64,000 bases of DNA. Source: a virus. Position numbers and translations under genes: made by a program. The stretch is from positions 96,001 through 160,000 of the IMG/VR virus record IMGVR_UViG_3300045988_119718. The stretch is one strand, 5' to 3'. This document shows, piece after piece, positions 14,980 through 55,399 of this stretch (position 1 is its first letter; every line of letters starts with the position of its first letter). Below the pieces are notes generated by a model, which was not told the origin of the DNA, searched no databases, and saw only the letters and a list, made by a program, of their open reading frames with translations.

Positions 14980-17139
14980 TTAAGACTTAAAAATCGGTGT
15001 AATGAATTCTGGTTTCTTAGGCGCTTTTACTTCATTACTTAAAAATTCTTGTGGTTGTACCATAAAGAACATATCCATTCTAGATGATTCATCCTTAGCA
15101 TAAGTAATTGGATTAGTTAATGTGGATTTAAGATTCTTATATAAGAGACTAATAATAACTGATGGATTATTAGTAAGCGACTGATCTAATGAGAGAATCT
15201 GATATTCTTCATTATCATGCTCCCATTCTGGTAATTTCAATTTAGAATGCACACTTCTAATCTGATTCATAAGCATGCATTCTAGATGAACAGATTGAAT
15301 GGTAATCTTACCTTTAATAATCAGATTAATAAATTTCTTTAATAAAGAATCTTTATCCAAACCAATCAATTCATCTTTCTTGTTAATGAGACTTTCAATA
15401 TCTTTCAAGTTCTTATCGATATCGTTATTAATAATCTGGATATAGAATAATGCATTATCATTCAAAGTATTAATGAGATCTTCAATATCGATATGATACA
15501 TTCTATCACTAGCTAATGATAATCTTTTAAGATAATCAATAAAGTCTTCAGAGAAAAACATTTCAGTCATATTCTCAGAATGAATATCATATTTCTTACC
15601 ATTCGTATCTTCAAATACAAATGAAGTAATATAATTTGTAAACTGAGAAGAATCTGAGAAGGATGATTCCATATTATCTTCTTCATCAGAATCAGATTCT
15701 GTATTCTCCGTATTATCCATAATACTATTTGGATCGATAATAATATGACCAGCTTCAATATTATCATTGACATAGATCATATTTACATTATCTACATAGA
15801 AGAATTTATTAAAATTATCATTCCAATTAATCTTTTCAATTACAGTTTCAAGAAGATGTTTAGCTGACAACTGTTTCTGTGTAGTCTGTGAAGTCAACTG
15901 TTCTACCGCAAACTTACCTACTTTAAGATTAGAATTAATATAAGCAAGTTCTCCATAACATCTCTTACAAATACCATGACCATGTGCAGCGGATGCACAA
16001 GTCATTGGAGAGAAAAGATAAATTGTTTTACCAATAAGAAATGTATCAGTAGGATGAATTAAATAATCAATTCCATCTGGATTGGTTCTATAATATCTTC
16101 CTGTAAGCATACTAAGGATTTTGCTATTATCGATAGTAATCACAATAGGATTATGAGTATTACACTTATAATCCAAATCAGTGTTTAATACAGTATCAAT
16201 ATTATTAATACCCATGATACGAGCAAAGTTACCAGAAGATGATGTATTGTGCTTAACAATAATCTGTGCAACTCTAGAAGATGCAGAGTCTACAAACTGG
16301 TCTGCTACATGCTGTAAACCGCCCATAAGATAAGATCTATCAATGATATGAGGATGTACACCACCAGTACCATCTGGTTTAGAACCAATATGAATCGCAA
16401 ATTCTTTATACTGTCTAGGGCTAACACCTTCTCCAGTTTCAAAAGAATTCTTTAAACAATGATCGTATCCTAAAACAGATTTAGAATTCTTGATAATTTC
16501 GATGCTTCTATCTGCTTTATCCATACCAATATCTTTTACATCTTCGATACTTTTATCAATAAGTGATGTATGAACAAGATTATTGAATTCTGGAATATTA
16601 TTCATCAAATCGATAGTATCTTTAAGATTAATAGTATTAGCCAAGAAGAATGAAAAAGAATCTACATCAGAAAACTTAGATAAGGTATCATCGATAATAT
16701 TATTGAGAGAAATAGTGATTCTTTTCACATCCTGTTTATAGATATGACTAAACCTCTCTACAATAATAGGAATATATCTATCAAAATATTTTTTAATGCA
16801 TTTTCTATTAATTACTTTAGGACAGAATAGTGCTCTTCCATCCAAGGTAATACCACTCTTAACAACCAAATACCACATAATAATATTAAAATACAAATCG
16901 AAGATGGTTAAATCAACTACATCATTATTACCAAAATCTACAGTAATAATGAATCGTTTAATCTCTTCGGTTTCAATATTATCTTTAAGAATATTTAAGA
17001 TACCATCATAATATTCTTGCCAATTAGAACTAGTAATATCACTAGTTCTTAAATAGAATTTCCCAGTTCTAACTAAGTCTGCAAACATATAATAGTTTTG
17101 ATAGTTATTTAACATCTTACTCCTCCTTTTAAACAACAA
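14980..17139 (-). CDS. Large hypothetical protein (719 aa) with a Cys/His cluster (MTCASAAHGHGICKRCYGE) and an acidic Ser/Asp/Glu-rich linker.
   Basis: ORF; a possible zinc-binding motif. No confident family assignment. Confidence 0.4.
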   Translation of the reverse strand: MLFKRRSKMLNNYQNYYMFADLVRTGKFYLRTSDITSSNWQEYYDGILNILKDNIETEEIKRFIITVDFGNNDVVDLTIFDLYFNIIMWYLVVKSGITLDGRALFCPKVINRKCIKKYFDRYIPIIVERFSHIYKQDVKRITISLNNIIDDTLSKFSDVDSFSFFLANTINLKDTIDLMNNIPEFNNLVHTSLIDKSIEDVKDIGMDKADRSIEIIKNSKSVLGYDHCLKNSFETGEGVSPRQYKEFAIHIGSKPDGTGGVHPHIIDRSYLMGGLQHVADQFVDSASSRVAQIIVKHNTSSSGNFARIMGINNIDTVLNTDLDYKCNTHNPIVITIDNSKILSMLTGRYYRTNPDGIDYLIHPTDTFLIGKTIYLFSPMTCASAAHGHGICKRCYGELAYINSNLKVGKFAVEQLTSQTTQKQLSAKHLLETVIEKINWNDNFNKFFYVDNVNMIYVNDNIEAGHIIIDPNSIMDNTENTESDSDEEDNMESSFSDSSQFTNYITSFVFEDTNGKKYDIHSENMTEMFFSEDFIDYLKRLSLASDRMYHIDIEDLINTLNDNALFYIQIINNDIDKNLKDIESLINKKDELIGLDKDSLLKKFINLIIKGKITIQSVHLECMLMNQIRSVHSKLKLPEWEHDNEEYQILSLDQSLTNNPSVIISLLYKNLKSTLTNPITYAKDESSRMDMFFMVQPQEFLSNEVKAPKKPEFITPIFKS

Positions 17140-21850: not shown

Positions 21851-22630
21851 TTAATATTTTATCAATAAATAAACTCCATCATCAGGAATATTTGTATTAG
21901 GATAGTATATAGTAATAGTACCAGCTCCACATACGGTTTTTAATATTTTATAGTTATCTAAATCACAAGCTGCGGCTTTATCGGAAGAAGTAATGTCCTT
22001 ATCATCTGTATATACATAATGTGCTGTCGTACCTTCTATTACCCAATCAGCTTTATCTGTACCTGTTCTAATACTACTTCCGCCGCATAAAAGAATCATT
22101 AATGATTGCTCATCAATAGATGATGATGAACCAGCGTTTTTTAAATCATCTTTTGTAGCTAATTCGCTACCTTTATAAGTGATAGTCTCACCTTCACCCA
22201 TATCCAATAATGTCTTAGTACCACTCTCTGTTATAGAGTTTACCTGTAAACCACCATTCATAATGATTTTAGACTGATTGGTCTGTTCTCCATGAGTGAT
22301 TACGGTTTCATTGTTGACCACAGGATGATTAAAAGTTGTATCAGAGTTTACCTGTATTTCTTTTACGTTAAAATCTAAAGCACCATTGAATTCGGTATGT
22401 CCGTTAAATGTTACTTGACCATCGAACTCTGCTAAACCTTCAGCAAATACATTATTACCATTTAAAGTATTATCACCAATTAAGTTTACTTTCTTGTCTA
22501 ATTCAGCTTTAATTACTTTATTTTGTACAGCATTAAGGCTGGTATCAGATAAAGATTCATCTAATTGTGTTGTTGGAGAGGAGTAAATATTCCCCCCCCC
22601 CACAATAACTCCAGATATTGTTTGTGACAT
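21851..22630 (-). CDS. Tail-fibre-like protein (259 aa) whose N-terminus belongs to the polyG family (MSQTISGVIVGGGN...). It is in frame (ON) as sequenced.
   Basis: A G10 tract sits at codons 10-14. The N-terminal motif is shared with the small paralog family. Confidence 0.5.
   Translation of the reverse strand: MSQTISGVIVGGGNIYSSPTTQLDESLSDTSLNAVQNKVIKAELDKKVNLIGDNTLNGNNVFAEGLAEFDGQVTFNGHTEFNGALDFNVKEIQVNSDTTFNHPVVNNETVITHGEQTNQSKIIMNGGLQVNSITESGTKTLLDMGEGETITYKGSELATKDDLKNAGSSSSIDEQSLMILLCGGSSIRTGTDKADWVIEGTTAHYVYTDDKDITSSDKAAACDLDNYKILKTVCGAGTITIYYPNTNIPDDGVYLLIKY
22592..22601 (-). repeat. Homopolymeric G10 tract (C10 on the plus strand) inside the 5' end of gene 21851..22630.
   Basis: Read directly from the sequence. 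Confidence 0.9.
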
Positions 22631-22667: not shown

Positions 22668-22904
22668 TTATATAGAACAATCAATGAACACAGAAGAATC
22701 CATAATACTGCTTACATCAGAACTATCAAAAATAGCTAAATCTGTAGAACTTATATTAGAACTGTCACTAAATATAGAATCTGCATCAGTTATTTCGGAA
22801 GAATCAAGGTAAAATGGATATATAGAAGCAGTATCAGTTACATTATCATCACATAAAATTTGGCCTTTAAATACATTTACTCGAGGTTTTAAAGTTGGGT
22901 TCAT
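22668..22904 (-). CDS. Hypothetical Ser/Asp-rich protein (78 aa).
   Basis: ORF only. Confidence 0.3.
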   Translation of the reverse strand: MNPTLKPRVNVFKGQILCDDNVTDTASIYPFYLDSSEITDADSIFSDSSNISSTDLAIFDSSDVSSIMDSSVFIDCSI

Positions 22905-22924
22905 AATTGATCTCTCCTATTTAC

Positions 22925-23356
22925 TTAATAATCAGTAACTGTTGGGGTATGAGTATTAATTTCAGGAGACCATGAAATTGTGAAACTGAGCCGATCGGCA
23001 CCATCTGCATTATACTCAGTCTCCCCGATCCAGTATACCAACTTATTTGTACCAGTAACTACGTTATACAAAACTGCATCCATATAGAATGATTCTTGTT
23101 CATCTTGCATTTTGTATTGCAATTCACCAGTAAGCCTATATTCACGGGAAGGTGTTACCCCCACGAAAGTGGTTTCATCAATTTCATTACCATAATAATC
23201 AATACCATACAACCTTGCTTTAACAACTTTTACATTTGGGAGGGGGTAAATACACCCATATGATTAAAATTAGTAGACCCAGTAGGTATACTTACAGTTG
23301 CTGGAGAGGCACTAAATACTACCCCCCCCCACTACTCCCTTAATCGTTGTTGCCAT
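22925..23356 (-). pseudogene. PolyG-family small protein (MATTIKGVVGGG...SPEINTHTPTVTDY) disrupted by two frame changes as sequenced.
   Basis: The true ATG at 23356 has RBS GGAGGAA. Frame is lost at the G9 tract (a G8 or G11 would be needed). It is lost again at CCCCCTCCC (23238-23246), where +1 C is needed. The annotated 95-aa ORF is only the 3' two-thirds, starting at TTG. Confidence 0.5.
23322..23330 (-). repeat. Homopolymeric G9 tract at the 5' end of the disrupted family gene.
   Basis: Read directly from the sequence. Confidence 0.9.
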
Positions 23357-23385
23357 AATAATATTCCTCCTATTATCTTCTATTA

Positions 23386-24750
23386 TTATTTAACACTTAA
23401 ATCACCTGGTAAGTATCCACTAGCAGCTACAACTTCTGCTTCGTAGGTAGTTCCTATTGGGCAGGTAAATGTGGACGTATGGTCTGTACCACCAGATTTT
23501 TGTGGAGTATAAACGTGAATAGTCTGGTTAGCAGACTGAACAATAGTTACAGTTGCTGTAGCTACTGTTGCTGCATTATGAGATACCGTAGTATTACCAT
23601 TTACAGTACCAGACTTTGCAGAACCTGGGTTATATCCACTATCAGCGGTATAGCTAATACTATAAGTAGTTCCGTAAGGAACACTTAAAGTTTGTGAACT
23701 CTTAGTAGCTGTTGTAGTATAAGACGGTAAGGTACCACCATATGAACTATTAGTTGCTAATCTAAGATTATAAGACTGATTTGCAGTAGCCGGAACAGTT
23801 AAAGTATAGTATCTTAATGAAGCACTAGCAGATTTAGCTGGGATAGATGTAGTATTTGTTACTGTACCACTTACTGAATTAGAAGCTGTATATGTATATG
23901 CATTTGTAGCACTATTAGCCGTATAAGCTACAGAGTACGTAGTACCATAATTTACGGTATAAGATGTAGCACTAGCAGTAGCTGCTTTAGCAACTCCATC
24001 TACAGTAGCTACATAAGTCTGGTTAGTAGTTGCTCCAAATGACAAGGTAAAGGTCTTAATAGCAGCAGCTGTAGCAGCTATAGTTACAGAATCAGTAATA
24101 GTACCACTAGTAGATGTTAATGTACCGGCATTATATCCAGTATCTGGAGTTATAGTAGCAGTCCATTTATCGCCATATGTAGCAGTAAATGTAGAAGTAT
24201 GTGCTACACCATTGCATGTTACAGTAATAGTCTGATGATCTGATTGATTAATATAAAATGTAAAAGTCTGTTTAGCAGCAGCGGTACAAGATAATGTAAA
24301 GCTACCAGCTTCAATATTAGCTTGAGTAATTCTATATGGGTTAGATACAGTAGTACCATTAATAGTTGGAGAAGATGCTTTATATCCTGTAGCTGGAGTA
24401 CAAGTAATAGTTAAAGCAGTATTCATTGGTAATAAAGTACCTGTAGATACAGCAGTACCAGAAGCATTAGTGACTCTAATAGTTTGGTTAGCTACTTGAG
24501 TAATATTCATAGCAGCTTGAGTCCATTTTAATATTGCATACTTAGTAGAAGAACCATTCTTCTGAATTCTAATACCAGAAGCATTATTAGCTGTAAGAGA
24601 AGTACCTAAACCAGCATATACATTAGCACCATCTACTTCTAAATTAATAGTAGAATATCCTGCACAGTCAGCTTTAGAAGTATATAAAGCACAAGTTCCT
24701 GAAGTACCATTTGTTTTCTGATAATGAAGAGATTTAGTTATCTTACTCAT
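23386..24750 (-). CDS. Ser/Thr/Ala-rich fibre or structural protein (454 aa) with a C-terminal copy of the repeat module.
   Basis: C-terminus IVQSANQTIHVYTPQKSGGTDHTSTFTCPIGTTYEAEVVAASGYLPG. Confidence 0.5.
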   Translation of the reverse strand: MSKITKSLHYQKTNGTSGTCALYTSKADCAGYSTINLEVDGANVYAGLGTSLTANNASGIRIQKNGSSTKYAILKWTQAAMNITQVANQTIRVTNASGTAVSTGTLLPMNTALTITCTPATGYKASSPTINGTTVSNPYRITQANIEAGSFTLSCTAAAKQTFTFYINQSDHQTITVTCNGVAHTSTFTATYGDKWTATITPDTGYNAGTLTSTSGTITDSVTIAATAAAIKTFTLSFGATTNQTYVATVDGVAKAATASATSYTVNYGTTYSVAYTANSATNAYTYTASNSVSGTVTNTTSIPAKSASASLRYYTLTVPATANQSYNLRLATNSSYGGTLPSYTTTATKSSQTLSVPYGTTYSISYTADSGYNPGSAKSGTVNGNTTVSHNAATVATATVTIVQSANQTIHVYTPQKSGGTDHTSTFTCPIGTTYEAEVVAASGYLPGDLSVK

Positions 24751-25003
24751 TTTCTATCCAAACCTTTCCACCATCTACATGGATAATAAATGAATCCTTT
24801 AGTTTAGATAAAGAATCCACTTGTGATTGTAATTTATTTATTTTTTCTGATAAATCAGTACTTTCTTTTTTAAGATGATCTATTTCATTATTCTTAGCAG
24901 CTAAGATATTATTAAGAGAATCTATCTCTAATGAAAGTTGATTATACTCAGATGAAGTATAACCACCTAATAAGTGTATTAAAAACTTAAACATAGTAAA
25001 CAC
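24743..25003 (-). CDS. Small coiled-coil protein (86 aa).
   Basis: Heptad-like Leu/Lys/Glu-rich sequence. Confidence 0.35.
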   Translation of the reverse strand: MFTMFKFLIHLLGGYTSSEYNQLSLEIDSLNNILAAKNNEIDHLKKESTDLSEKINKLQSQVDSLSKLKDSFIIHVDGGKVWIENE

Positions 25004-25011
25004 CTCCTATG

Positions 25012-25275
25012 TTAGATTGACACACCATCAATCTTTTGGTTTTCAAACTTCTTGTATGCGTCAAGGTATACTTCTTTCTTATCTCCGTTGTATGTAACCT
25101 CGTAGTACATACCATCGGGCAAGGTAGTTGACACCAATGCTTTCCAATTCTGCAAGGTTTTACAGAACCAAACAACGTAAACATTATCTAACGTAATCTG
25201 TACGTTGTCTGTTTTATCAATATGCTTGTTAGCGTAGTTCAAAACAATTTCTTTTGCAATTTCCTGATAGTTCAT
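25012..25275 (-). CDS. Hypothetical protein (87 aa).
   Basis: ORF only. Confidence 0.35.
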   Translation of the reverse strand: MNYQEIAKEIVLNYANKHIDKTDNVQITLDNVYVVWFCKTLQNWKALVSTTLPDGMYYEVTYNGDKKEVYLDAYKKFENQKIDGVSI

Positions 25276-25295
25276 AAATTATTCTCCTTATCTTG

Positions 25296-25698
25296 TTAAT
25301 AATCTGTTATTGTAGGTGTTTTTTTGTTAATTTCTGGTGACCATGATATACGATAGGTAAAGCTATTAAATTCTCTAAGCGGTACTCCATGCACCATCCA
25401 ACTCATATTATCATGTGTGCTGCATTGCACGCCAAAAACCATTGTCTGCCCCTGTCCATGAAAAAAACTTTTGGGTTTATGATATGATCCAGGAGTAACC
25501 CCTATATAAACAGGGTCTAAAGTAAAGATGCCACCACTAACATCCATTGTTAGGCTTAATGCAAGTATGTGAACATTAGCTGGGATAACAAAATTAGGTA
25601 AATCACCTTCATAACTCCCAGTAGGTACACTCACGGTAGCAGGACTAGCACTAAACGTCGTCCCCCCCCCCAATTATACCTTTTAATGTTGTAGCCAT
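25296..25698 (-). CDS. PolyG-family small protein (MATTLKGIIGGG|TTFSASPATVSVPTG...SPEINKKTPTITDY); phase-OFF as sequenced (G10).
   Basis: An upstream ATG with an RBS gives MATTLKGIIGGGDDV* at G10. G9 restores the full 134-aa protein. The ORF-track model starts at a TTG immediately 5' of the tract. Confidence 0.5.
25662..25671 (-). repeat. Homopolymeric G10 tract.
   Basis: Read directly from the sequence. Confidence 0.9.
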
Positions 25699-25719
25699 AT
25701 ACAACTACCTTCTTTCTTT

Positions 25720-26105
25720 TTAATAATCAGTATCGTCTGGTGTGTGAGTATTAATTTCAGGAGAATAATATATAGTTACCCCTTCTATATCATTTTCATC
25801 ATTAACATCCTCAATTTTCCAACTAGTAATTTGATGTATATTATGGGTAAAACAATAAATACCATATACCATAGTATGATGAGGTGGTATATAATCTGTT
25901 TGAAGTCCCCATACATGTGTTGAGCCAGGGGTAACACCCACGTAAAATCCACGTACATAAAGTACCTTTATTCCATTTGGAACTGTAAATCTTTCTGAGC
26001 TATCTGGGCCTATATATATGCTTCCACTCGGTATACTTGCAGTTGCTGGGGTGACACTAATAGTTACCCCCCCCCCCATATAGTTCCTTTTAAAGATTGT
26101 GACAT
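25720..26105 (-). CDS. PolyG-family small protein (MSQSLKGTIWGGG|VTISVTPATASIPSG...SPEINTHTPDDTDY); phase-OFF as sequenced (G11).
   Basis: The RBS-proximal ATG at 26105 reads MSQSLKGTIWGGG* at G11. G12 or G9 restores the frame. The ORF-track model starts at an internal ATG embedded in the tract. Confidence 0.5.
26067..26077 (-). repeat. Homopolymeric G11 tract.
   Basis: Read directly from the sequence. Confidence 0.9.
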
Positions 26106-26123
26106 AATATGATTCCTTTCTTT

Positions 26124-26544
26124 TTAATGATCAGTTACGGTAGGAGTTTGCTTATTTATTTCAGGAGAGTATTTTATATAAAATCTATCTATTTTGCAAT
26201 CTTCGCCTTCTCTGGTTTCAGCATTTACATAAGTATAGTATTTTTTATTTGGAATTACTCCAACGTATACTGTGTGACTAGTAATGCCTTCGCCAGTACT
26301 ATAGATCCATTGACCGCTACTACTATCTACGGTTAGAACTACAATATGTTCTGTACCACTACTAATATAGGCAGATGCATAAACTTCAATCACTTTTACA
26401 CCATTAGGAATTATAAAGTCATCATTAAGGCCGTTTTCATCATTAGATCTATCCACTAAATATCCAGTTGATACAACTATTTCAGTAGCGGGACTAGCTG
26501 TGAATGTTAGCCCCCCCGATTGTTCCCTTCATCGTTGTAGCCAT
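26124..26544 (-). CDS. PolyG-family small protein (MATTMKGTIGG...LTFTASPATEIVVSTGYLVDRSNDENG...SPEINKQTPTVTDH); phase-OFF as sequenced (G7).
   Basis: The upstream ATG at 26544 has RBS AGGAGA. G7 gives MATTMKGTIGGANIHS*. G9 or G6 restores the frame. Confidence 0.5.
26511..26517 (-). repeat. Homopolymeric G7 tract.
   Basis: Read directly from the sequence. Confidence 0.9.
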
Positions 26545-26557
26545 AATAAATCTCCTA

Positions 26558-26734
26558 TTAGTATAACATTACGTATACCACAATTAAACTAATTAAAGAA
26601 ATTATAGAATACTTAACAGAATTTTTAAGATATTCTTTGTAGTTTTCTTTTACGCTTTGTAAAGAAATAGTCTGCCCTACAAATGTTAATACAGCAGCCA
26701 CTACAAGAAATAAAACAAACGTTAATAAAGTCAT
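26558..26734 (-). CDS. Small two-TM membrane protein (58 aa, MTLLTFVLFLVVAAVLTFVGQTISLQSVKENYKEYLKNSVKYSIISLISLIVVYVMLY); holin-like.
   Basis: Strong RBS AAGGAGAT. Two hydrophobic helices. It is below the ORF-track cutoff. Confidence 0.35.
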   Translation of the reverse strand: MTLLTFVLFLVVAAVLTFVGQTISLQSVKENYKEYLKNSVKYSIISLISLIVVYVMLY

Positions 26735-26755
26735 TTTTTATCTCCTTATTATTTT

Positions 26756-27232
26756 CTACTTAGCAATCTTAGAAGCTGATTTCTCAGCTTCTGATTCTAT
26801 TTTTGATCTATTCATAATTACATATTCTTTATCATATTTACTTTGCTGCCATTTATGAACTAATTCATGACAAAGTATTTCTTTTTGTTTATTTATAGAT
26901 AATCCTGATTTATTAAGAAAAATCTTATTAGTATTCCATATTCCACATGCATATGAAGTTCTTACTAATCTATTAGCCATATCTTTAGAAAGTTTATTTT
27001 CTATTAATATTTCTCTATATTCTTTATCTGTATTGGAATAGTATACTTCTAAATCTTCAAATTTATAATTTAAACATGACTCAGTATTTGCAATACACCA
27101 TTCAAAAATAGCTTTATCTTGTGTATTAGCATTTATTAGATTATGAGCACTTATAGATATAAATTGCAAATTTAGTAGTAGAAATACTAATAAGATAATT
27201 CTAATAATTATAAATCTCATTATTCTATCCAA
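26756..27232 (-). CDS. Secreted or membrane-anchored putative zinc metallopeptidase (158 aa) with an HExxH motif.
   Basis: N-terminal hydrophobic signal or anchor. HELVH motif (CHELVHKWQQ). Confidence 0.45.
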   Translation of the reverse strand: MDRIMRFIIIRIILLVFLLLNLQFISISAHNLINANTQDKAIFEWCIANTESCLNYKFEDLEVYYSNTDKEYREILIENKLSKDMANRLVRTSYACGIWNTNKIFLNKSGLSINKQKEILCHELVHKWQQSKYDKEYVIMNRSKIESEAEKSASKIAK

Positions 27233-28506
27233 ATCTTACCACCAGGAATATTTAAAGTGGTAGTAGCAGTTACAGTAGCTGCACTAATTCCTGTGCAAGC
27301 AGTTGGTACACCATTAGTAAAGTATACAGGTTGAGTAGTGCTACCAGCATTAGAAGTTAATTTATTAGCAGCTGCTGCATTAGCAGTCTTACCTAAGTAA
27401 GTATTTGATGCGTCTGTTTTGGTTAAATATCCACTTAAGTCTAATTTCTGTGTTCCTAGCTGTTCCCATTTACTATTTACATAGATATATTCAGTATACA
27501 GGTTTTGAGTATCATTACCTGTCTTTTTCAAATAAATAGTAGTATCAGAAATATTAGTAGTTGGTAAATCATTTACTACAGCAATAGCAAATTTAGGAAT
27601 AGAAGAAATCTGAGCATTAACTTCACCCTTAGTATAGTAATTGCTTAAAGATTGATGGGAAGTAAGTGGAGTAATGCTATTAGCACCAAGAGTAATTACA
27701 CCATTAGCAATCTTAGCATCGGTAATACCATAACCAGATAATGTAGTAGGATTAGTACCAGCAGTTACATGCCCTTGAGCATTAACTGTTACAGATTTAT
27801 ATGTACCCGCAGTTACACCAGAATTAGGGTGAGTATATACTGTGTTAGTATCTGTACTTGAAATAGTAATTACACCATTAGCATCAGATGTAACTGTAGT
27901 AGCACCAGTACCTACAATCTTATGGGAATCTCTTACAGTGCAATTATCTAATACATTAAGGTATACATTGCCATTGCTAGCAATAGCATTAGATGTAGCG
28001 GAAGCAGTTGCACCTACTTTTAAACCAGTAGTATAATGGGTAAGATGAGCAGGAGGGGTATATCCTAAAGCACCAATTACATTATCCGCAGTAAGACTAA
28101 TAGTACCTGTATCTACAGTAATATTAGAGCCTACTTTAACACCACCCTTAGTAGTGGTGTTAGCATCAGGAAGAGAATATACTGTATCTGTAAATTTAGC
28201 ATTAGCTGGTACATTGCTTAATACAGTATGACCATTTACTGTACTAGCATTACCGCCATTAGCAGGTAGCGAAGTAGGAATAGCTACTGATACACTTTTA
28301 CTACCATCATAACTAGCTGTAGAACCACCAGTAAATGAAATAGCATTAGGATTTTTAAGTGAAGTAGGAGTTCCTTTTAAATCAGAGTAATTACCAGTTG
28401 TAGCTACTTTAGATAGTGAATCTTTGGTTGCATATTTGCTATCAGAATTAGTTACCAAACGCTTCAGTGTTTCTATAGTAGCAACAGGTTTAGATAATCT
28501 TGTCAT
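27220..28506 (-). CDS. Tail-fibre protein (428 aa) with a Thr/Gly/Asn-rich shaft and C-terminal ...TLNIPGGKIWIE.
   Basis: Shares its C-terminal tip with 3840..5228. Confidence 0.55.
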   Translation of the reverse strand: MTRLSKPVATIETLKRLVTNSDSKYATKDSLSKVATTGNYSDLKGTPTSLKNPNAISFTGGSTASYDGSKSVSVAIPTSLPANGGNASTVNGHTVLSNVPANAKFTDTVYSLPDANTTTKGGVKVGSNITVDTGTISLTADNVIGALGYTPPAHLTHYTTGLKVGATASATSNAIASNGNVYLNVLDNCTVRDSHKIVGTGATTVTSDANGVITISSTDTNTVYTHPNSGVTAGTYKSVTVNAQGHVTAGTNPTTLSGYGITDAKIANGVITLGANSITPLTSHQSLSNYYTKGEVNAQISSIPKFAIAVVNDLPTTNISDTTIYLKKTGNDTQNLYTEYIYVNSKWEQLGTQKLDLSGYLTKTDASNTYLGKTANAAAANKLTSNAGSTTQPVYFTNGVPTACTGISAATVTATTTLNIPGGKIWIE

Positions 28507-36651: not shown

Positions 36652-37812
36652 TCATAAAGCTAAATTCTGATTACCTGATAAGAATCTTTTAGAATAGTAA
36701 TCTAAATTAAATTCTCTAGTATCTTTATCTAAATATTCTCTACTAATATACTTATCAAAACATTCTTTTTCAATATCATAGATGACTTTTCTAGATATAC
36801 ATTTATTGTATGAGTTAAATATGTATCTAGTTTCTAATGGGCATTCTGTGCAATATGAAACATGATTACACTGAATACATCTATCAATGTTTTCATTTAA
36901 AAGATTAGTATATAGATTAGTAAAATTAGACATTGATTTAGAATCAAACCCAGTAGAAATATTTCCTAGTACTAAATCATTATTATTATCTAATAATCCA
37001 TCTATTTCTTTTAAAAGTAAACATGGATAAATATCCCCATTAGGCACTACCATAAACATCTTTCCGATATATCTGCATTTATGGTCATAAATAAAATCAG
37101 GGTTTATAAATTTATTATAAATCATATATGTAAGATTATCCAAATCAAAATCATACTGATTATACAGCATATATATTTTATGCAGCTGATGTATAAAGAT
37201 AGTTTTAAACTCTTCAGTATTATAATATTTAGAGTATTCATCATTAAAAATAAAATAGTAAGATAACTTCTTACACCCTTGTTCTAGTGCATATTGAATA
37301 GAGTCAGCTAAATAACAAATATTGTCTTTAGTAACTGCTATAGCTATCATAACTTCATTATTATACTTAGAACAGCCTACTTTATCAACAATAGTAGACA
37401 ACTGTTTATCAGTAAGATGAGTTTGGGCTATTTCAGAAGCATGAATACCATCCCATGATATTTTAACTGATTCAGGAGAAATTATCTTTATTAAATCATT
37501 CATAATAAAGTTGTGATTAGTACCATTAGATACTATACCAATCTTAACTGTTGTATCTTTATATCGCTCAATCTTTTTTAACTCTTTGCATAGATTATAA
37601 AGCTCATTAGGATATATAGTTATCTCTCCCCCTAATAAGTTTATATATAACTTAGGGCCGATATTTAAGGTCTTTAAAAACTCTACCAGCTCTTTGCCTT
37701 TATTGAATACATTGTGCCTAGACCTAGAGTTATTAGTCTCAAAGCAATATTTACAATTCAAATTACAATAGTCATTAAATTTTATCCCTAAGAAATCAAT
37801 TTGCTCATACAT
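36652..37812 (-). CDS. Radical SAM / SPASM-domain enzyme (386 aa), putative peptide maturase number 3.
   Basis: Radical-SAM cluster motif CNLNCKYC (CxxxCxxC). C-terminal SPASM-like cysteines: C..GDIYPC ... CIQCNHVSYCTECP. Confidence 0.7.
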   Translation of the reverse strand: MYEQIDFLGIKFNDYCNLNCKYCFETNNSRSRHNVFNKGKELVEFLKTLNIGPKLYINLLGGEITIYPNELYNLCKELKKIERYKDTTVKIGIVSNGTNHNFIMNDLIKIISPESVKISWDGIHASEIAQTHLTDKQLSTIVDKVGCSKYNNEVMIAIAVTKDNICYLADSIQYALEQGCKKLSYYFIFNDEYSKYYNTEEFKTIFIHQLHKIYMLYNQYDFDLDNLTYMIYNKFINPDFIYDHKCRYIGKMFMVVPNGDIYPCLLLKEIDGLLDNNNDLVLGNISTGFDSKSMSNFTNLYTNLLNENIDRCIQCNHVSYCTECPLETRYIFNSYNKCISRKVIYDIEKECFDKYISREYLDKDTREFNLDYYSKRFLSGNQNLAL

Positions 37813-38992
37813 TTTTCATACCTAATAGCTTAATAAAATTGCTTACTAATTCGGCTTCTTCATCATTTTTCTGTATTGCTTCTATATTATTAATTCTATT
37901 AAAAGTATAATTATCCATCTTAGTAGTGGAGATATCAGTAGATAATGCAAACTTCAAATCTTCTGGTGAAGTATTAATAATCTTACCATTTAAAATTTTT
38001 TCATTATTAATTGCAATAGTAGCATATTTTCTTAACAATACTGCATACTTAATAACTTTAGATCTATCATAATAAGATAATCCTCTAAGAAGAGTCGGCA
38101 TATTGGTAAGACCATCATTGAACAAGTCGATGATCTTGTTCAATAATTTTTTACAAGTTGTAATTCTTTCTGCTCTATTTGTATTACTGATAGAAAATAA
38201 TAAGTACATCAGCATAGTATCACAGAATCTGAGATAACCATAGTTATACTTCTTATATTGATAATCTCCTATTTCACTATATAAGAAATTATCAAGCTTA
38301 TTATACAAATCCTGAAGATCTATTTTAATTCTATTATCTTCTAAAAGTTGATTGATATTATGAATATAGAAGCATACCCAATCACAGAATTGGGAGTTAA
38401 TATTATCTTTATCACTAGAATACTCTAAAGTCTTATTATAATACTTTTTAATAGTATTCATGCATTTGGATGTAATATCTTCTTCTGACATAGAATTTGT
38501 AATAAAGTCTTTAGAGATACTGTCTATAAGAATCTTGTAAGCAATATAGTTATAATAAATAAATTTACTATAGTTTTTAGATTCATGAGATTCAAAATAT
38601 TTAATAAAGGTTTTCATATAAGAGAAATAAACATCTTTTTTATTAGAATCATTAAAATCTATAAATGCAATTAATAATGCTAAATAGTTTTCATCATCTA
38701 ATGCTTTAGTATTATGAATATATTCTTCTCCAATAAAATCTTTACTAATTATTTCAAATTCTTGAAGTAAAATTGGTTCATTTTTTAATGATTCTTCAAT
38801 AGAAGATTTAATATCAGAGTATACTTTCTTATTATCTTCATTTTCTATAAACAAAGAAGAATATTTAATATATTCTTCAAATGTAGTAAAAGAATTATAT
38901 TTATCAGATAGAGCGTTAAGTTTATCTATTACATCAGATACTTTATTCTCTAATATATAATTATAAATTCTTTCTGGTAAAAAATATATCAT
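37805..38992 (-). CDS. Hypothetical protein (395 aa) embedded in the radical-SAM cluster.
   Basis: ORF. Translationally coupled to its neighbours. Confidence 0.4.
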   Translation of the reverse strand: MIYFLPERIYNYILENKVSDVIDKLNALSDKYNSFTTFEEYIKYSSLFIENEDNKKVYSDIKSSIEESLKNEPILLQEFEIISKDFIGEEYIHNTKALDDENYLALLIAFIDFNDSNKKDVYFSYMKTFIKYFESHESKNYSKFIYYNYIAYKILIDSISKDFITNSMSEEDITSKCMNTIKKYYNKTLEYSSDKDNINSQFCDWVCFYIHNINQLLEDNRIKIDLQDLYNKLDNFLYSEIGDYQYKKYNYGYLRFCDTMLMYLLFSISNTNRAERITTCKKLLNKIIDLFNDGLTNMPTLLRGLSYYDRSKVIKYAVLLRKYATIAINNEKILNGKIINTSPEDLKFALSTDISTTKMDNYTFNRINNIEAIQKNDEEAELVSNFIKLLGMKNV

Positions 38993-38993
38993 A

Positions 38994-40046
38994 TTAAACC
39001 TCCATATCTACATTATTAACCTTATATAACCAATTCTTATATCGCATAATTATTTTATAAAGTTCTGCTAATTCTTCATGATTAAGACTTGCTAAATATT
39101 TAGTAATAAGATTATCATAAACTTTCATAAGTTTACATGTTTCTGGTAAATAATTATCTAACCATTTATCACCAAACTTTAGCATTCTTTCATATCTACA
39201 TCCACCATCGCAAAGGTAAAAATATTTACAATTTTCTATCTGACAATCTTTACTGGTACAACGCTTCTGTATTTTATCAAAGTCTTCATATTTCTGTTCA
39301 GTAAATGCGATAGAAGTGCATGATGACATAGTTTTATCTGTAAGATAAGACTGTTCTTTACCTGCTGCGCATGACTGCATTGGTGCTCTATTAATATATG
39401 CCATTATCTTATTAAGATTTTCTGTATATGGATGCTCTAATGTACCTTCAAAAGTACAATAAAGATTCTCTTCTAAATCTTTAAACCATTGATCGTCATG
39501 GTCTTCACCTCTAGCAATACAGTATTGACCATTAATATGAAACTCTTTATCTAATCTATGGAATAACTTATTAAGTCTAGGTATATCTTTTACATTAGCA
39601 TTATTAATTACAGTCTTAATATCAAAGTGGTCTAGTCCTTCAGATATAGCATAATTAATATTATTCAATACTCTATCGGCAATACTTCTACCAGAAGTAT
39701 CTACTCTAGAATCTTTAAATCCATCCCAAGAAATTTGTAATTCTATATGCCATTTCTTTTGGAACTTAATAAACTCTTTCCAATTAGCCATACTAGAAGT
39801 TATAACTTGAAAGTTCATTTGATCGTGATACTTTTCTAAGGTGTATTCCATTAAGTCTAATCTCATTAATGGTTCTCCACCAAAGAATACCACTCTATTT
39901 GGTTTATTTTGCTCTATACACTCATCTATATCTTTTTCTGTAAGACAATCATTATTATACTTGATATAACAATAATGGCATCTATTAGGACATTGATTGG
40001 TTAAAAATAAATATATTTCTTTATACATTAGAATCCACCACCACAT
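38994..40046 (-). CDS. Radical SAM / SPASM-domain enzyme, putative peptide maturase number 2. The start is probably MYKEIYLF at 40031.
   Basis: CPNRCHYC (CxxxCxxC), FFGGEPL, and a C-terminal Cys cluster: CAAG...C...CTSKDCQIENCKYFYLCDGGC. Confidence 0.7.
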   Translation of the reverse strand: MWWWILMYKEIYLFLTNQCPNRCHYCYIKYNNDCLTEKDIDECIEQNKPNRVVFFGGEPLMRLDLMEYTLEKYHDQMNFQVITSSMANWKEFIKFQKKWHIELQISWDGFKDSRVDTSGRSIADRVLNNINYAISEGLDHFDIKTVINNANVKDIPRLNKLFHRLDKEFHINGQYCIARGEDHDDQWFKDLEENLYCTFEGTLEHPYTENLNKIMAYINRAPMQSCAAGKEQSYLTDKTMSSCTSIAFTEQKYEDFDKIQKRCTSKDCQIENCKYFYLCDGGCRYERMLKFGDKWLDNYLPETCKLMKVYDNLITKYLASLNHEELAELYKIIMRYKNWLYKVNNVDMEV

Positions 40047-40519
40047 TTCTTATCATGACATGTACCACCATGGCATGATTGGCAAGATATTTGGCAAGTA
40101 GACTGACAAGATGCTTGACATACAAGTTTGCATGGGCCTGCCCAATAATCATCAGACTTAGAATTCATTTGCTGTAGTAAAAGTTTTGCTATATTATAAA
40201 TAATACCTATATCATTAGCTGTAATTATTTTTTGTTTTTGAACTTTATTGTTGATATCTTTTAATTGATTATAGTTTGCTGAAGTAGTTCTAGAAAGCTG
40301 TGTAATAGTTTTACTATAACCATTACCACCTTTTCTACTTATTTCGTTATCAGTAACAGCATTAATAGAATCTAATTCTGTAATATTTGTAAGCAAACAA
40401 TTTATCGTATTATTAAAGAAATCATTTGTAATGAAATGATCTTTAGCAGGAGAATCTGGTAAATAATATTTTACAGATTGTCTAATTACTTCTGTAGCCA
40501 TTAGAAACCACCCCCACAT
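40028..40519 (-). CDS. Cys-rich precursor protein B (about 157 aa from MATEV...) with a SCIFF/ranthipeptide-like C-terminal core, LVCQASCQSTCQISCQSCHGGTCHDKKCGGGF.
   Basis: Seven Cys with C-x3-C spacing at the extreme C-terminus. The core is identical to that of precursor A. It lies immediately upstream of a radical-SAM/SPASM gene. Confidence 0.65.
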   Translation of the reverse strand: MWGWFLMATEVIRQSVKYYLPDSPAKDHFITNDFFNNTINCLLTNITELDSINAVTDNEISRKGGNGYSKTITQLSRTTSANYNQLKDINNKVQKQKIITANDIGIIYNIAKLLLQQMNSKSDDYWAGPCKLVCQASCQSTCQISCQSCHGGTCHDKKCGGGF

Positions 40520-40911
40520 TTCTTATCATGACATGTACCACCATGGCATGATTGGCAAGATATTTGGCAAGTAGACTGACAAGATGCTTGACAGACTAAT
40601 CCACATGTACCATTGTTATTCCAATATTTCCAAGAATGTTCTTGCAATACATTGGAAATAGATTTACATAAATTATATATAGCTTTAGCATCATCTGCTT
40701 TAATAACATCACCTTGACTGATTAAGCTAATAATAGAATGAACAGTTTTAGGAACACCAATTCTAGAATATTCTATAATCTGTTTCTTTCTATATTCGTC
40801 TTTCTCTAATTCATCTATATTAGATAACATAGTCTCAATCATGTTATCATAAATAGTCTTACTAGAATTGACTAAATTATAGTGTATACCATTATTTACT
40901 ATCTTTTCCAT
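40501..40911 (-). CDS. Cys-rich precursor protein A (136 aa) with the identical C-terminal core, LVCQASCQSTCQISCQSCHGGTCHDKKCGGGF.
   Basis: Same as precursor B. The N-terminal roughly 100 aa are unrelated to precursor B. Confidence 0.65.
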   Translation of the reverse strand: MEKIVNNGIHYNLVNSSKTIYDNMIETMLSNIDELEKDEYRKKQIIEYSRIGVPKTVHSIISLISQGDVIKADDAKAIYNLCKSISNVLQEHSWKYWNNNGTCGLVCQASCQSTCQISCQSCHGGTCHDKKCGGGF

Positions 40912-44464: not shown

Positions 44465-44893
44465 TTAATAATCGGTTAAAGTAGGAGTTTTATTATTTAT
44501 TTCAGGAGAATATTTTATATAAAATCTGTCTATATAAGATTCACCACCACGAACACCAACGTACACCCTAATAGAGTATCGCTTATTCGGAGTTACACCA
44601 ATATATCCTAGAAATGAAATCGTCTCGCCATAATCACCACCACGGTACCATTGTTTGTTATTACTAAATACAGTCATACAAACTGGGTAATCCTCCTCGT
44701 GAGACGAACTAGCACTTGCATATACTTCAATCACATGTATACCATTAGGAATTGTGATAGTTCTAGTAATATCATCATTATAAGTATTTTGTTCATTTAC
44801 CAAATACCCTGTTGGTATGCTTACGGTTGCTGGGCTAGCCGTGAATGTTAGCCCCCCCCCAATTATACCTTTCATTGTTGTAGCCATATACAA
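44465..44893 (-). CDS. PolyG-family small protein (142 aa, MYMATTMKGIIGGGLTFTASPATVSIPTG...YSPEINNKTPTLTDY); phase-ON as sequenced (G9).
   Basis: Intact ORF with the family N- and C-terminal motifs. Confidence 0.55.
   Translation of the reverse strand: MYMATTMKGIIGGGLTFTASPATVSIPTGYLVNEQNTYNDDITRTITIPNGIHVIEVYASASSSHEEDYPVCMTVFSNNKQWYRGGDYGETISFLGYIGVTPNKRYSIRVYVGVRGGESYIDRFYIKYSPEINNKTPTLTDY
44852..44860 (-). repeat. Homopolymeric G9 tract.
   Basis: Read directly from the sequence. Confidence 0.9.
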
Positions 44894-44918
44894 CTACCTT
44901 CTTTCTTTTTAATCGTAT

Positions 44919-45685: not shown

Positions 45686-46708
45686 TTACCCCCCCCCACT
45701 AACGTTCAATGCTCCTGGTTTATACCCACTATCAGCTATAACTTCAGCTTCATATGTAGTTCCCCTTGGACAAGTAAAGGTAGAAGTATGATCGGTTCCT
45801 CCATTCTTTTGAGGTGTATAAACGTGAATAGTCTGGTTAGCAGACTGAACAATAGTTACTGTAGCATTAGCTACTGTTGCAGCTTTAGCACTAATAATCA
45901 TATTGCTATTAAATGTACCACCCTTGGTATTTGGTGTACCTGCTATATAATTATTAGCAGCTATAACTTCTACTTCATAAGTAGTACCTACAGAGCAGGT
46001 GAATGATGAAGTGTGGTCAGTACCACCAGATTTTCTAGGTGTATATACATGGATAGTCTGATTATCACTTTGAACTATAGTTATTTTAGCATAGGATATA
46101 GCAGGGTTAGCATTAATAGACATATCACTATTAATTGTACCATTCTCATTAACATTTAATGACCCTGCTGTATAACCATTTTCAGCTATAACTTCAGCTT
46201 CATATGTAGTTCCCCTTGGACAAGTAAATGTAGAGGTATGATCTGTTCCACCAGACTTCTTAGGAGTATACACATGAATAGTTTGATTAGCAGATTGGGT
46301 AATAGTTACAGTAGCATTAGATTTTGTAGCAGAAGTAGCATTGATAGTTTTATTTTTAGTAAATGTACCACTTCTGCTAATATTTAGTGTTCCTGCCTTA
46401 TAACTATTTTCAGCTATAACTTCAGCTTCATAAGTAGTTCCTGCTAGACAGGTAAAGGTAGAAGTATAATCTATACCACCAATCTTTTTCGGTACATATA
46501 CATGAATAGTTTGATTATCTGACTGATTAATAGTAATTGTAATATTCTTTTTTTCATTATGAGTTTTCTTATAAAGGTCATCTATTAGATCTTGTAATTT
46601 CTTCCAAGTAGGGTCATCTTTAGAGATTCTTTTTAGAAGAATATTTTGAAGAGAAGCATCTAAATCTTCTAATCTTATTCTTCTAATTTCCTTTTTGTTA
46701 TCATTCAT
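45686..46708 (-). CDS. Protein with four tandem ~68-aa repeat modules (340 aa). It ends ...LNVSGGG* directly in a G9 tract.
   Basis: Four near-identical repeats: QSxNQTIHVYTPxKxGGTDHTSTFTC.xGTTYEAEVIAxxGYxAG. Confidence 0.55.
   Translation of the reverse strand: MNDNKKEIRRIRLEDLDASLQNILLKRISKDDPTWKKLQDLIDDLYKKTHNEKKNITITINQSDNQTIHVYVPKKIGGIDYTSTFTCLAGTTYEAEVIAENSYKAGTLNISRSGTFTKNKTINATSATKSNATVTITQSANQTIHVYTPKKSGGTDHTSTFTCPRGTTYEAEVIAENGYTAGSLNVNENGTINSDMSINANPAISYAKITIVQSDNQTIHVYTPRKSGGTDHTSSFTCSVGTTYEVEVIAANNYIAGTPNTKGGTFNSNMIISAKAATVANATVTIVQSANQTIHVYTPQKNGGTDHTSTFTCPRGTTYEAEVIADSGYKPGALNVSGGG
45689..45697 (-). repeat. Homopolymeric G9 tract at the junction of ORFs 45686..46708 and 44919..45674.
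   Basis: Read directly from the sequence. A +1 or -2 shift fuses the two ORFs. Confidence 0.9.
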
Positions 46709-46719
46709 AATATCACCTA

Positions 46720-47742
46720 TTATGAAACTCTATACCAAGCTGCTAATACTGCACCATATGGATTATTTGGTAATGGAGTAGATTTACAATTTGGTGATAA
46801 AGTTGAAGAGATAGTATGTCTATGAGCACCATCAGTAGATGTATTAGGTAAAACATCATCCTTGTCAGATTTTCCGCAGCCTAAATTTTTATTACTACTG
46901 TCATACACCCCCCATTTGCATCTATCAGGCCAATGCTCACCAAATACGGTTCCATGATGATGATCGCCGGTTGTATTAGTTGAACTACCGTTATGACTAT
47001 GCGGAGGCAAATTAGCCTCTGTAAACTTTAATGTGCTACTACCAGTCTTAGTAGTTATATCTGAAGTAGAATTCTTAATATTAACTTCCTCTACACTAGG
47101 ACTACCAATCTTTACATATGCATCACTAATTCTTACCCAATGTGTTCCTGGATATTCTGTACTAGGATTTACATTATAAGCATAGAATATAACTCTGCCT
47201 ACAGCTGGTACACCACTTACATCATCACTAGTCATTACTCTCTTAAATTTGGTATTATTTATATTACCATTACTAGCTCGAATGTATAATTTTCCATCTG
47301 GTTGAGAGATAAATAATTGTGTAGAATAATTTGTGTCTTTATCATAAGGCATATTTATTAATTGACCAGAACTAGCAGGTTGATTAGAAATAGTAGGTCT
47401 ATTGTAATTTGAAATATACATGCCTTGACTATTCCAATCAGCATCACTTGTTCCAGGATTATAGTTATCTTCTAATTTATGGAATGCTTCCCATACTTCA
47501 GTTTTCTTAACAAATTGATCAGTTATATTACCTAAATTATCTGCAATAAAATTTAGCTTTTTTACTAATTCATCATAACTATCTTTAGTTACTGTATTCT
47601 TAAATAGCTCTTGTAATGATGGAGCTAATTCTTCAAAGGTGATCTTATTTTCATTATCAACTTCAGCCATTAAAAAACCTCCAATCTTATTGATTCTAAT
47701 AGGTTTACGCCTATAGGTTACTAGTATGTTAATGTGCTCCAT
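46720..47742 (-). CDS. Tail-fibre protein with a phage tail-collar-type C-terminal domain and His-rich (HxH) motifs.
   Basis: VIFYAYNVNPSTEYPGTHWVRISDAYVKIG (tail-collar-like), LPPHSHNG...GDHHHG...GAHRHT. Confidence 0.5.
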   Translation of the reverse strand: MEHINILVTYRRKPIRINKIGGFLMAEVDNENKITFEELAPSLQELFKNTVTKDSYDELVKKLNFIADNLGNITDQFVKKTEVWEAFHKLEDNYNPGTSDADWNSQGMYISNYNRPTISNQPASSGQLINMPYDKDTNYSTQLFISQPDGKLYIRASNGNINNTKFKRVMTSDDVSGVPAVGRVIFYAYNVNPSTEYPGTHWVRISDAYVKIGSPSVEEVNIKNSTSDITTKTGSSTLKFTEANLPPHSHNGSSTNTTGDHHHGTVFGEHWPDRCKWGVYDSSNKNLGCGKSDKDDVLPNTSTDGAHRHTISSTLSPNCKSTPLPNNPYGAVLAAWYRVS

Positions 47743-55032: not shown

Positions 55033-55399
55033 CTTTTTCTTTACATAGGTCGTTAGTCTATGCAGTTCTCTTAAGAACGTCTTATGCGTTAGCATAAGTA
55101 GAGACTATATCTACATCTCATAGAGATGATACGCACTTCGGATACACTTGTATCCTACTCCTTACGGATAGTCGTTGAACAGAATTAGAAATTCATATTT
55201 CTAAAACTTGCTGCTGATTGTACATTGCATATACTTTTAGGATTTCTCCATGAGTAATCTTATAGATTTTTTCTGTATTTCTACTGCATTCACACTTATA
55301 CTTTCTATCGTATTATGTTGTAGCTCTATAAGCTTTAGCACTTTCCAGCAATTCACGTATTTTAAATTACACTATCGCTAGTATAATTGGCAATTATTT
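55033..55399 (-). mobile_element. Group I self-splicing intron (367 nt, no internal ORF) inserted in the NADFDGD codons of the RNAP beta-prime gene.
   Basis: On the minus strand: P AATTGCTGGAAA, Q AATCAGCAGC, R GTTCAACGACTA, S TAGATATAGTC. P7 pairs GACTA with TAGTC. The exon ends in U (GGU) and pairs with the IGS GCCA. The intron ends in G before GAT. Splicing restores an in-frame DFDGD. Confidence 0.7.

Follow-up and report, generated by a model that had tools for sequence, protein, structure and literature searches.

The subject of this work is a stretch of viral DNA of 64,000 nucleotides (nt), namely positions 96,001 to 160,000 of the IMG/VR record IMGVR_UViG_3300045988_119718 (hereafter, the window), and, within it, a set of guanine homopolymers (polyG tracts) embedded in genes that code for small knob-like and for tail fibre-like proteins. 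From its gene content, the phage can be assigned to the AR9/PBS1-like jumbo phages, as an uncultured member from human-associated metagenomes. The guanine-cytosine (GC) content of the window is 29.9%, and it contains seven G/C homopolymers of at least seven nt, every one of which is a run of G on the coding strand of genes lying on the minus strand. Five of them are harbored by the members of a single family of small genes (knob genes A to E); the other two fall in gene F, which codes for a fibre-like protein outside this family, and in the gene for a fibre protein of 340 amino acids (aa). Positions, lengths, and frames are reported in Table 1.

Table 1. PolyG tracts, genes, and other features of the window (ORF, open reading frame; LRR, leucine-rich repeat; SAM, S-adenosylmethionine)
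Feature	Position in window	Strand	Description
Tract of gene F	22592-22601	minus	G10, in frame
Tract of knob gene E	23322-23330	minus	G9, out of frame
Tract of knob gene C	25662-25671	minus	G10, out of frame from leader ATG
Tract of knob gene B	26067-26077	minus	G11, out of frame from leader ATG
Tract of knob gene A	26511-26517	minus	G7, out of frame
Tract of knob gene D	44852-44860	minus	G9, in frame
Tract of 340-aa fibre gene	45689-45697	minus	G9, at the 3' end of the gene, then TAA
Knob gene A	26124..26544	minus	leader MATTMKGTI, then G7; G6 or G9 needed
Knob gene B	25720..26105	minus	leader MSQSLKGTI, then G11; G9 or G12 needed from leader ATG
Knob gene C	25296..25698	minus	leader MATTLKGII, then G10; in frame at G9 (or G12)
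Knob gene D	44465..44887	minus	G9, in frame, 140 aa; reference for the structure model
Knob gene E	22925..23356	minus	G9, out of frame (G8 or G11 needed)
Fibre-like gene F, 259 aa	21851..22630	minus	leader MSQTISGVIV, then G10, in frame; not of the knob family
340-aa fibre protein	45686..46708	minus	four tandem repeats of ~75 aa, each ending GYxxGxLNV (GYxxGxLNVS)
DUF285/BspA-type LRR module, 251 aa	44919..45674	minus	Pfam DUF285, E 1.8e-35
454-aa repeat fibre protein	23386..24750	minus	paralogue of the 340-aa protein; ends ...ASGYLPGDLSVK; directly upstream of knob gene E
428-aa tail-fibre-like protein	27220..28506	minus	at the upstream end of the A-B-C cluster; tblastn matches to annotated tail fibre/tail proteins
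Baseplate/tail protein	46720..47742	minus	Gp10_C-like domain at the C-terminus; next to the 340-aa fibre gene, on its upstream side
86-aa coiled-coil protein	24743-25003		ends ...GGKVWIENE
DUF6275 protein, 87 aa	25012-25275		E 1.5e-36
Radical SAM block	36652-42322	minus	three radical SAM enzymes (386, 350, and 476 aa)
Large terminase, 759 aa	8941-11220		
ORF matching RNA polymerase beta-subunit PHROG family	14980-17139		
ORF matching RNA polymerase beta-subunit PHROG family	55394-56773		
ORF matching RNA polymerase beta-subunit PHROG family	58756-60012		

The number of these tracts is far beyond what chance would produce. According to a first-order Markov model of the window, 0.22 runs of G7 or longer and 0.01 runs of G9 or longer are expected, against the seven and six observed, respectively; runs of A and T occur at the expected frequency, and GGG accounts for only 8% of the glycine (Gly) codons of the long ORFs. 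Their placement is regular as well, since six of the seven (those of genes A to F) lie 9-10 codons past an ATG, the seventh being at a domain linker. Tracts far longer than expected, placed in the coding region or at its 5' end, are a feature of the contingency loci based on simple sequence repeats (SSRs). A G-quadruplex or promoter role for the runs was also considered, and it was dropped because there is a single run per site, inside the coding sequence and at a fixed codon position.

As for the knob genes, a strong Shine-Dalgarno sequence lies 7-10 nt 5' of each of the upstream ATGs, which open the short leader preceding the tract. The original prediction had listed the tracts of the five knob genes together with their frame states, and the comparison with our data was largely favorable: coordinates and lengths are exact, with the G on the minus (coding) strand, and a six-frame translation returned the same frames, including a second shift in gene E. 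The inventory was incomplete, the G10 tract of gene F and the G9 tract of the 340-aa fibre gene having been overlooked. Genes A, B, and C are OFF (out of frame) as had been proposed; for B and C this means strictly OFF from the leader ATG, because an ATG in B and a TTG in C abut the tract in frame (in B, MGGGVTI..., 119 aa). Gene D is ON at G9, as predicted, and only its 5' limit has to be corrected, the ATG being at 44887 and position 44893 corresponding to an in-frame TTG two codons upstream. The N- and C-terminal motifs described for the family are real according to the alignment. Lastly, the automatic ORF models do miss the true N-termini, as had been suspected, because the leader is in frame in 33 out of 88 homologue clusters retrieved from the databases, in addition to the Shine-Dalgarno sequence at each ATG.

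The evidence that carries most weight comes from near-identical contigs of other samples, which were found by an exact-sequence lookup of the small flanking proteins. One of them (L008, from a contig of 252,690 bp) shows no mismatches with the window over 12,264 nt and three indels, all of them in tracts: G8 instead of G9 in E, G9 instead of G10 in C, and G10 instead of G11 in B. Two others (L016 and L017) have no mismatches and a single indel each, at tract B, whereas in a further one (L007) 16.7 kb contain 11 substitutions and a single tract indel, G8 versus G9 at the fibre junction. Over the 12 kb of L008, three out of five tracts have thus a new length and not one base is substituted; therefore, the tracts mutate far faster than their flanks and than ordinary sites in general, as SSR contingency loci do.

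These changes toggle the reading frame. Among near-identical contigs, gene C is ON at G9 and OFF at G10, and gene F is ON at G10 and OFF at G11; in L008, the G9 of gene C gives an in-frame product of 133 aa. Gene C also has G9 in L012, a contig that begins inside the leader, and G11 in L009, reached through an A>G substitution. In gene F, G11 is due to an insertion in L009, and is out of frame, and to a substitution in L010, where the frame is still open; its orthologue in L024 and L031 has G9 and is out of frame. Two tracts were lengthened by an A>G substitution at the 3' edge, with the frame unchanged. Of the other contigs, four have G10 at tract B and one has G11, and knob E with G8 (L008) yields a product of 41 aa only. 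Moreover, contigs from three samples start or end exactly at tract C, which is what assemblers do at an unresolved mixture of lengths; a drop of coverage in G runs could have the same effect. The comparison of tract lengths among related genomes, which the original prediction had put forward as a check, revealed that lengths vary and that both frame states occur, and its core proposal, i.e., that slipped-strand variation in polyG length gates small proteins of the receptor-binding apparatus, is supported by contigs that differ almost only in tract length.

It might be objected that the true tracts are all in frame and that the OFF states are homopolymer errors of sequencing or assembly, G runs of at least ten being error-prone on Illumina and contigs breaking at tract C. 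We consider this very improbable. The same lengths recur across assemblers (MEGAHIT k119/k141, and contigs with SPAdes-style NODE/scaffold names), with A at G7 in six out of six contigs and B at G10 in four. Short tracts are out of frame as well (G7 in A, G8 at the fibre junction), and the coverage of the SPAdes contigs is 50-80x. Furthermore, the gene calls across the 88 homologue clusters span the full range of states, and fused and unfused orthologues of the 340-aa fibre each occur many times (see below).

The five copies of the window share 35-60% identity with one another, and the OFF copies have kept open frames of 125-140 codons despite a GC content of 30%. The repaired product of knob A would be 139 aa long; among its relatives, P0049 is in frame with four Gly codons after the leader and P0056 has a frameshifted leader, and its C-terminal end is TDH versus the near-invariant TDY found elsewhere in the family. 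The second frameshift of knob E corresponds to a C5 run of the coding strand at 23242-23246, where C6 would restore the frame, and its intact orthologue P0087 (145 aa) has indeed a C6-type frame. According to these data, knob E is probably a decaying copy. This raises the question of whether all the OFF copies might be pseudogenes and the polyG a fragile Gly linker devoid of an adaptive role. The two frameshifts in E, and the fact that A appears fixed in the OFF state and ends in TDH, speak in this direction; nevertheless, as an explanation of the whole system, decay has very little probability in our view, given the persistence of the 125-140-codon frames in OFF copies, the occurrence at every site of at least three consecutive copies of the rare GGG codon in paralogues only 35-60% identical and in two unrelated phage types, and the coexistence of OFF and ON alleles of the same gene among near-identical genomes. 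Taken singly, E can be accounted for by decay, and so perhaps can A.

The tract of the 340-aa fibre gene has a different effect on its product. Each repeat of this protein is followed by a short linker, e.g., RSGTF, ENGTINSDMSINA or KGGTFNSNMIISA, and the polyG codes for the Gly of the last one. With G9 (window) or G8 (L007), a stop codon is met 0-1 codon past the tract. In silico, G7 or G10 leads to read-through via VINSDMTITV... into the ORF of the DUF285/LRR module, giving a protein of 595/596 aa with the junction ...LNVSGGGVINSDMTITV...; this makes the module a candidate polyG-gated C-terminal extension of the fibre. In the relatives of the window, L023 has G7 and a real 468-aa fusion, the C-terminal part of which belongs to the knob family, and L027 has G12 and a fibre that stops. 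In both of them, the codon that corresponds to the window's ATG is AAG, so that the downstream module has no start of its own there. Moreover, the 18 orthologue clusters of the 340-aa fibre (at least 81% identity) comprise eight short forms (339-342 aa) and ten long ones, the latter either of 460-468 aa with a knob or of 515-595 aa with DUF285. In one fused orthologue (P0248, 595 aa, from L063), the tract is interrupted, GGGAGGGGGG, and this form looks like a locked allele; two in-frame members (P0004 and P0059) with a non-Gly residue within the Gly run may represent further interrupted tracts. At their N-terminus (GGG-LTFTASPATVS), the stand-alone knobs are similar to the inter-repeat linkers of the 340-aa fibre; for this reason, the knob genes look like detached modules made up of a linker plus a tip.

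The distribution of states in the knob family at large was examined in the 88 homologue clusters, all of which are metagenomic and come from a collection of 5.8 billion proteins. Beside the 33 whose leader is in frame (MATTxKGxI, then GG, GGG, GGGG, or WGG), in 18 the called start codon is adjacent to the tract (MGGG...), in four a frameshifted leader is read through, and in another 33 the start lies downstream of the tract. A profile search of 1.84 billion representatives retrieved 307 clusters, with the domain in a C-terminal position in nearly all the proteins listed. From these relatives, 38 non-redundant leader-type tracts followed by an intact frame of at least 100 aa could be collected, of which 11 are ON and 27 are OFF; about one third in frame is the expectation if all three phases are visited freely. 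Their lengths range from G7 to G12, with a mode at G10, and one relative harbors six leader-type tracts (G13, G10, G9, G11, G8, and G11) within 4.2 kb. The tract-abutting ATG or TTG may render two of the three phases productive; all three phases are populated without a clear preference. Tracts preceded by a short leader were also observed at 7922-7931 of contig L002 (G10) and at 6158-6165 of contig L001 (G8), ahead of ORFs with no evident membership of the knob family; the 165-aa frame of L002 is open only in the +2 phase.

Homopolymer runs are known to promote transcriptional slippage, and an alternative explanation is that RNA polymerase stutters, or the ribosome shifts, on the GGG codons; in this case, all copies would be expressed at a reduced, mixed level regardless of the phase of the DNA, and the tract would act as an attenuator or as a generator of isoforms and not as a switch whose state is inherited. 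In its favor, in-frame lengths are not in excess (11 ON out of 38, the modal G10 being mostly OFF), gene A is out of frame in six out of six contigs and yet its frame of 139 codons is open, and the phage has an AR9-like multisubunit RNA polymerase of its own. We regard this explanation as unlikely, since the length polymorphism is seen directly in the DNA, where it represents the dominant difference between near-identical genomes, and since the interrupted tract of the fused L063 form makes sense only if the phase of the DNA matters. In addition, there is neither a conserved stimulatory structure nor the fixed slippery length that is typical of programmed frameshifting or transcriptional slippage: lengths range from G7 to G13 among relatives and vary even between near-identical genomes. 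Slippage of the RNA polymerase or of the ribosome could, in any case, be a layer added to slippage of the DNA.

The fibre repeat-polyG-knob junction is found also in phage contigs of ~38-41 kb with a GC content of 46-50%, where it reads ...GYTAGTLNVNA or ...NVST, then G7-G8, (R/I)INSDMTFSAS, and the knob; six of these loci are fused and four are stopped. The smaller phage type that harbors the junction includes L003-L005, L028, and L044-L052, with contigs of up to 127 kb. A scan of 185,579 species genomes retrieved a single match, a contig (L028) in a genome bin of Fusicatenibacter saccharivorans, which belongs to this phage type (~47% GC) and not to the jumbo phage. In L003, a second knob gene, free of tracts, lies directly downstream of the fused one.

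The 5' regions of knob genes C and D are ~97% identical over 62 nt (blastn) versus 43% identity between their proteins, which is suggestive of gene conversion, or else of recombination, at the leader. The near-identity extends to the ribosome-binding site, the leader, and the tract; the 5' regions concerned are those at 25699-25735 and 44888-44925 of the window. This aspect, together with the occurrence of different modules (DUF285 or the C1q-like knob) after the same junction in orthologous fibres and with the sharing of the junction between jumbo and ~40-kb phages, would be in keeping with a leader-polyG-linker that serves mainly as a homology patch for the exchange of knob and fibre cassettes, with length variation as a by-product. 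As the main function of the tracts this is extremely improbable, since it leaves unexplained both the upkeep of a homopolymer of the rarest Gly codon and the switching of the frame. Such a patch is compatible with the contingency-locus model, to which it probably adds.

Concerning the products, the knob proteins match no family in Pfam or PHROGs. The AlphaFold2 model of knob D, built with 34 homologues, has a predicted local distance difference test (pLDDT) score of 84.5; disorder is seen at residues 1-16 (the leader and the Gly run), and a sandwich of eight strands at residues 27-126. The predicted monomer has the compact jelly-roll beta-sandwich of 8-10 strands that characterizes C1q/TNF-like knobs, with a sequence identity to C1q/TNF-like structures of only 3-14%. 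According to this model, the knobs are predicted to be C1q/TNF-like beta-sandwiches resembling those at the tips of tail fibres. Conservation is concentrated in the N-terminal strand, in TITIPNGVKVIEV and YIGVTPNKQY, and in YSPEINxxTPTxTDY at the C-terminus, with variable regions in between. The knob genes are surrounded by genes for tail-fibre-like and Gp10_C-like baseplate proteins, and it is because of the predicted fold and of this gene context that we read the knobs as putative alternative receptor-binding tips.

In the neighborhood, the product of 46720..47742 matches a PHROG tail protein (E 3e-16) and Pfam Gp10_C with 28.3 bits (cut-off 27), and the 428-aa protein matches, beside tail proteins, PHROG families of unknown function. 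Proteins of the 454-aa type share 43-44% identity with the 340-aa protein, and the gene for one of them lies on the same 252,690-bp contig as L008; the C-terminal repeat of the 454-aa protein matches the protein fused to the knob in L003/L004. In all relatives, the DUF6275 gene keeps its place between the knob cluster and the gene for the 454-aa fibre, and the C-terminus of the 86-aa coiled-coil protein can be compared with that of the 428-aa fibre protein (...IPGGKIWIE). These two small proteins may be assembly factors. The fibre and knob module is adjoined by the block that codes for the three radical SAM enzymes, the 476-aa one with a SPASM domain, and for several unannotated ORFs. The block is flanked by genes for a 945-aa protein and an Amidase_2 protein, is kept in the relatives L023 and L027, and may represent a pathway for the modification of peptides or sugars. 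The only phage relatives of the amidase are Synechococcus phage proteins, with ~30% identity.

The assignment of the phage to the AR9/PBS1-like jumbo group is due to the large terminase and to the three ORFs matching RNA polymerase beta-subunit families, which are hallmarks of this group. The beta/beta' genes are of the split multisubunit type, and a family B DNA polymerase is also encoded in the window. The closest large terminases are those of Bacillus phages Goe21 and BpSp and of the AR9/PBS1 group (37-39% identity), and the related contigs are 227-264 kb long. Within the 64-kb window, no transfer RNA genes were found. The collection of cultured phages (50,697 phage records) returned no match, either in a megablast search with positions 22800-27300 or in a tblastn search with knob D, and only distant relatives were retrieved from IMG/VR.

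Taken together, these data allow us to propose, with good though not full confidence, that slippage at the polyG tracts during replication produces heritable and reversible states, ON or OFF for the knob genes and gene F and short or fused for the 340-aa fibre, i.e., that the tracts are contingency loci of the phage. What is directly observed is the enrichment of the tracts, their position, their frame states, the length polymorphism between otherwise identical genomes, and the presence of both states in nature. The following steps would then complete the model. The G tracts would occupy the Gly-linker codons directly 5' of each alternative distal module of the tail fibres, and single Gs would be gained or lost by slipped-strand mispairing during the replication of the phage DNA. 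In genes A to E and in F, the length of the tract, placed after a leader of 9-10 codons, would set whether the leader ATG reads the body of 125-250 codons; in the 340-aa fibre, where the tract falls at the last inter-domain linker, it would set whether the protein stops or continues into a C-terminal module, which would be DUF285/LRR here and a C1q-like knob in relatives. As a consequence, the progeny of one phage would carry different combinations of knobs and fibre tips, as a bet-hedge against variable host receptors. We infer that slippage occurs at replication, that OFF alleles are unexpressed, that the tips are borne by the virion, and that host range would change with them.

Several points weigh against this proposal. 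Tract lengths come from assembled contigs, so that a mixture of lengths within a population and the reversibility of the changes are putative, and some of the compared assemblies are possibly re-assemblies of the same samples, which makes the count of independent populations uncertain. Illumina accuracy falls in long G runs, and this may add to the contig breaks. Not every copy appears to be an active switch, considering that the six contigs covering tract A all have G7 (OFF) and that knob E has its second frameshift. The modal length, G10, is OFF for most copies, and this fits the model of RNA or ribosome slippage too. Moreover, B and C may give leaderless products from the start codons abutting the tract, and free knobs of 130-140 aa may raise the question of how they are attached to the virion.

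A broader proposal is that polyG-gated tips are a general and so far unrecognised host-range bet-hedging device of human-gut Bacillota phages, combining gated knob arrays with a fusion switch; a genome with as many as six or seven tracts would give dozens of virion types, and the junction would be common to ~250-kb AR9-like and ~40-kb phages. To this broader proposal we give about an even chance. If the system works as proposed above, host range would be defined, in abundant gut phages, by the population and not by the genome, and both the fragmentation of the assemblies of such phages and the truncation of tract genes by gene callers would be explained. It would also provide a concrete set of tracts for genotyping in longitudinal metagenomes and for the study of phage-host arms races, and it would call for caution in reading frameshifted tail genes of metagenome-assembled phages as pseudogenes or errors.

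The system can be compared with others that vary the receptor-binding apparatus or exploit homopolymers. In T-even and other coliphages, short homopolymers mutate by polymerase slippage, with a bet-hedging role (Gomez, Barrick & Waters, bioRxiv 10.1101/2025.10.21.683753); those repeats start from six bases, occur in all gene classes, and are significantly under-represented in tail-fibre genes (bioRxiv 10.1101/2025.10.21.683753), whereas here long G runs are found only in fibre and knob genes. The SSR loci of bacteria (polyG/polyC in Campylobacter, Haemophilus, and Neisseria) share with those of the window a homopolymer placed within the reading frame close to its 5' end, the toggling of the frame by single-base indels, the presence of many loci in a genome, with combinatorial states as a result, and tract lengths that cluster around G9-G10 (PMC4965091). 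Unlike them, the system described here resides in a virus with its own DNA polymerase, and its putative targets are virion tips, not cell surface-modifying enzymes. Diversity-generating retroelements (Bordetella phage BPP-1) and the invertible G and C segments of Mu and P1 likewise obtain alternative receptor-binding tips from one genome (PMC10579305), but the mechanism is wholly different. No reverse transcriptase or invertase was found among the ~40 ORFs scanned with Pfam or PHROGs, a scan that included no search aimed at template and variable repeats or at inverted repeats. Trimeric heads of the C1q/TNF-like type are known on the fibres of phages and spores, i.e., from the receptor-binding domains of the tail fibres of cyanophages A-1(L)/A4, from P5 of PRD1, and from the C-terminal domain of Bacillus BclA; in the present case, the domain is often a free-standing product of 130-140 aa.

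The closest parallel is offered by the Fletchervirus phages of Campylobacter, in which hypermutable polyG tracts make receptor-binding proteins phase-variable (Sorensen et al. 2021, Cell Rep 35:109214, as cited in PMC10579305 and PMC11959909). In the citing literature, this system is counted among three known strategies of tropism switching in phages and, where one review touches on it, it is presented as an exceptional case; as far as these sources go, polyG phase variation of phage receptor-binding proteins is documented essentially in Fletchervirus only. As described by the citing papers, Fletchervirus has in common with the phage of the window an AT-rich genome, intragenic polyG tracts in host-recognition genes, and changes in length that result in phase-variable expression. 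Shared descent finds no support, in that none of the 50,697 phage records matched, whether by megablast or by tblastn. The lineage is different, as the phage of the window is of the AR9/PBS1-like jumbo type and its genes for a multisubunit RNA polymerase are split, and so is the layout, with a leader and a Gly linker placed before tandem stand-alone C1q-like knobs, plus a switch between stop and read-through fusion. As judged from the sequences, the system works like the polyG tracts of Fletchervirus, does not share descent with them, and is built differently. The same principle would then have been reached independently in an uncultured jumbo lineage present in many human metagenome samples, and in unrelated contigs of ~40 kb, with an architecture, made of gated knob arrays and a fusion switch, that is richer than that of Fletchervirus.

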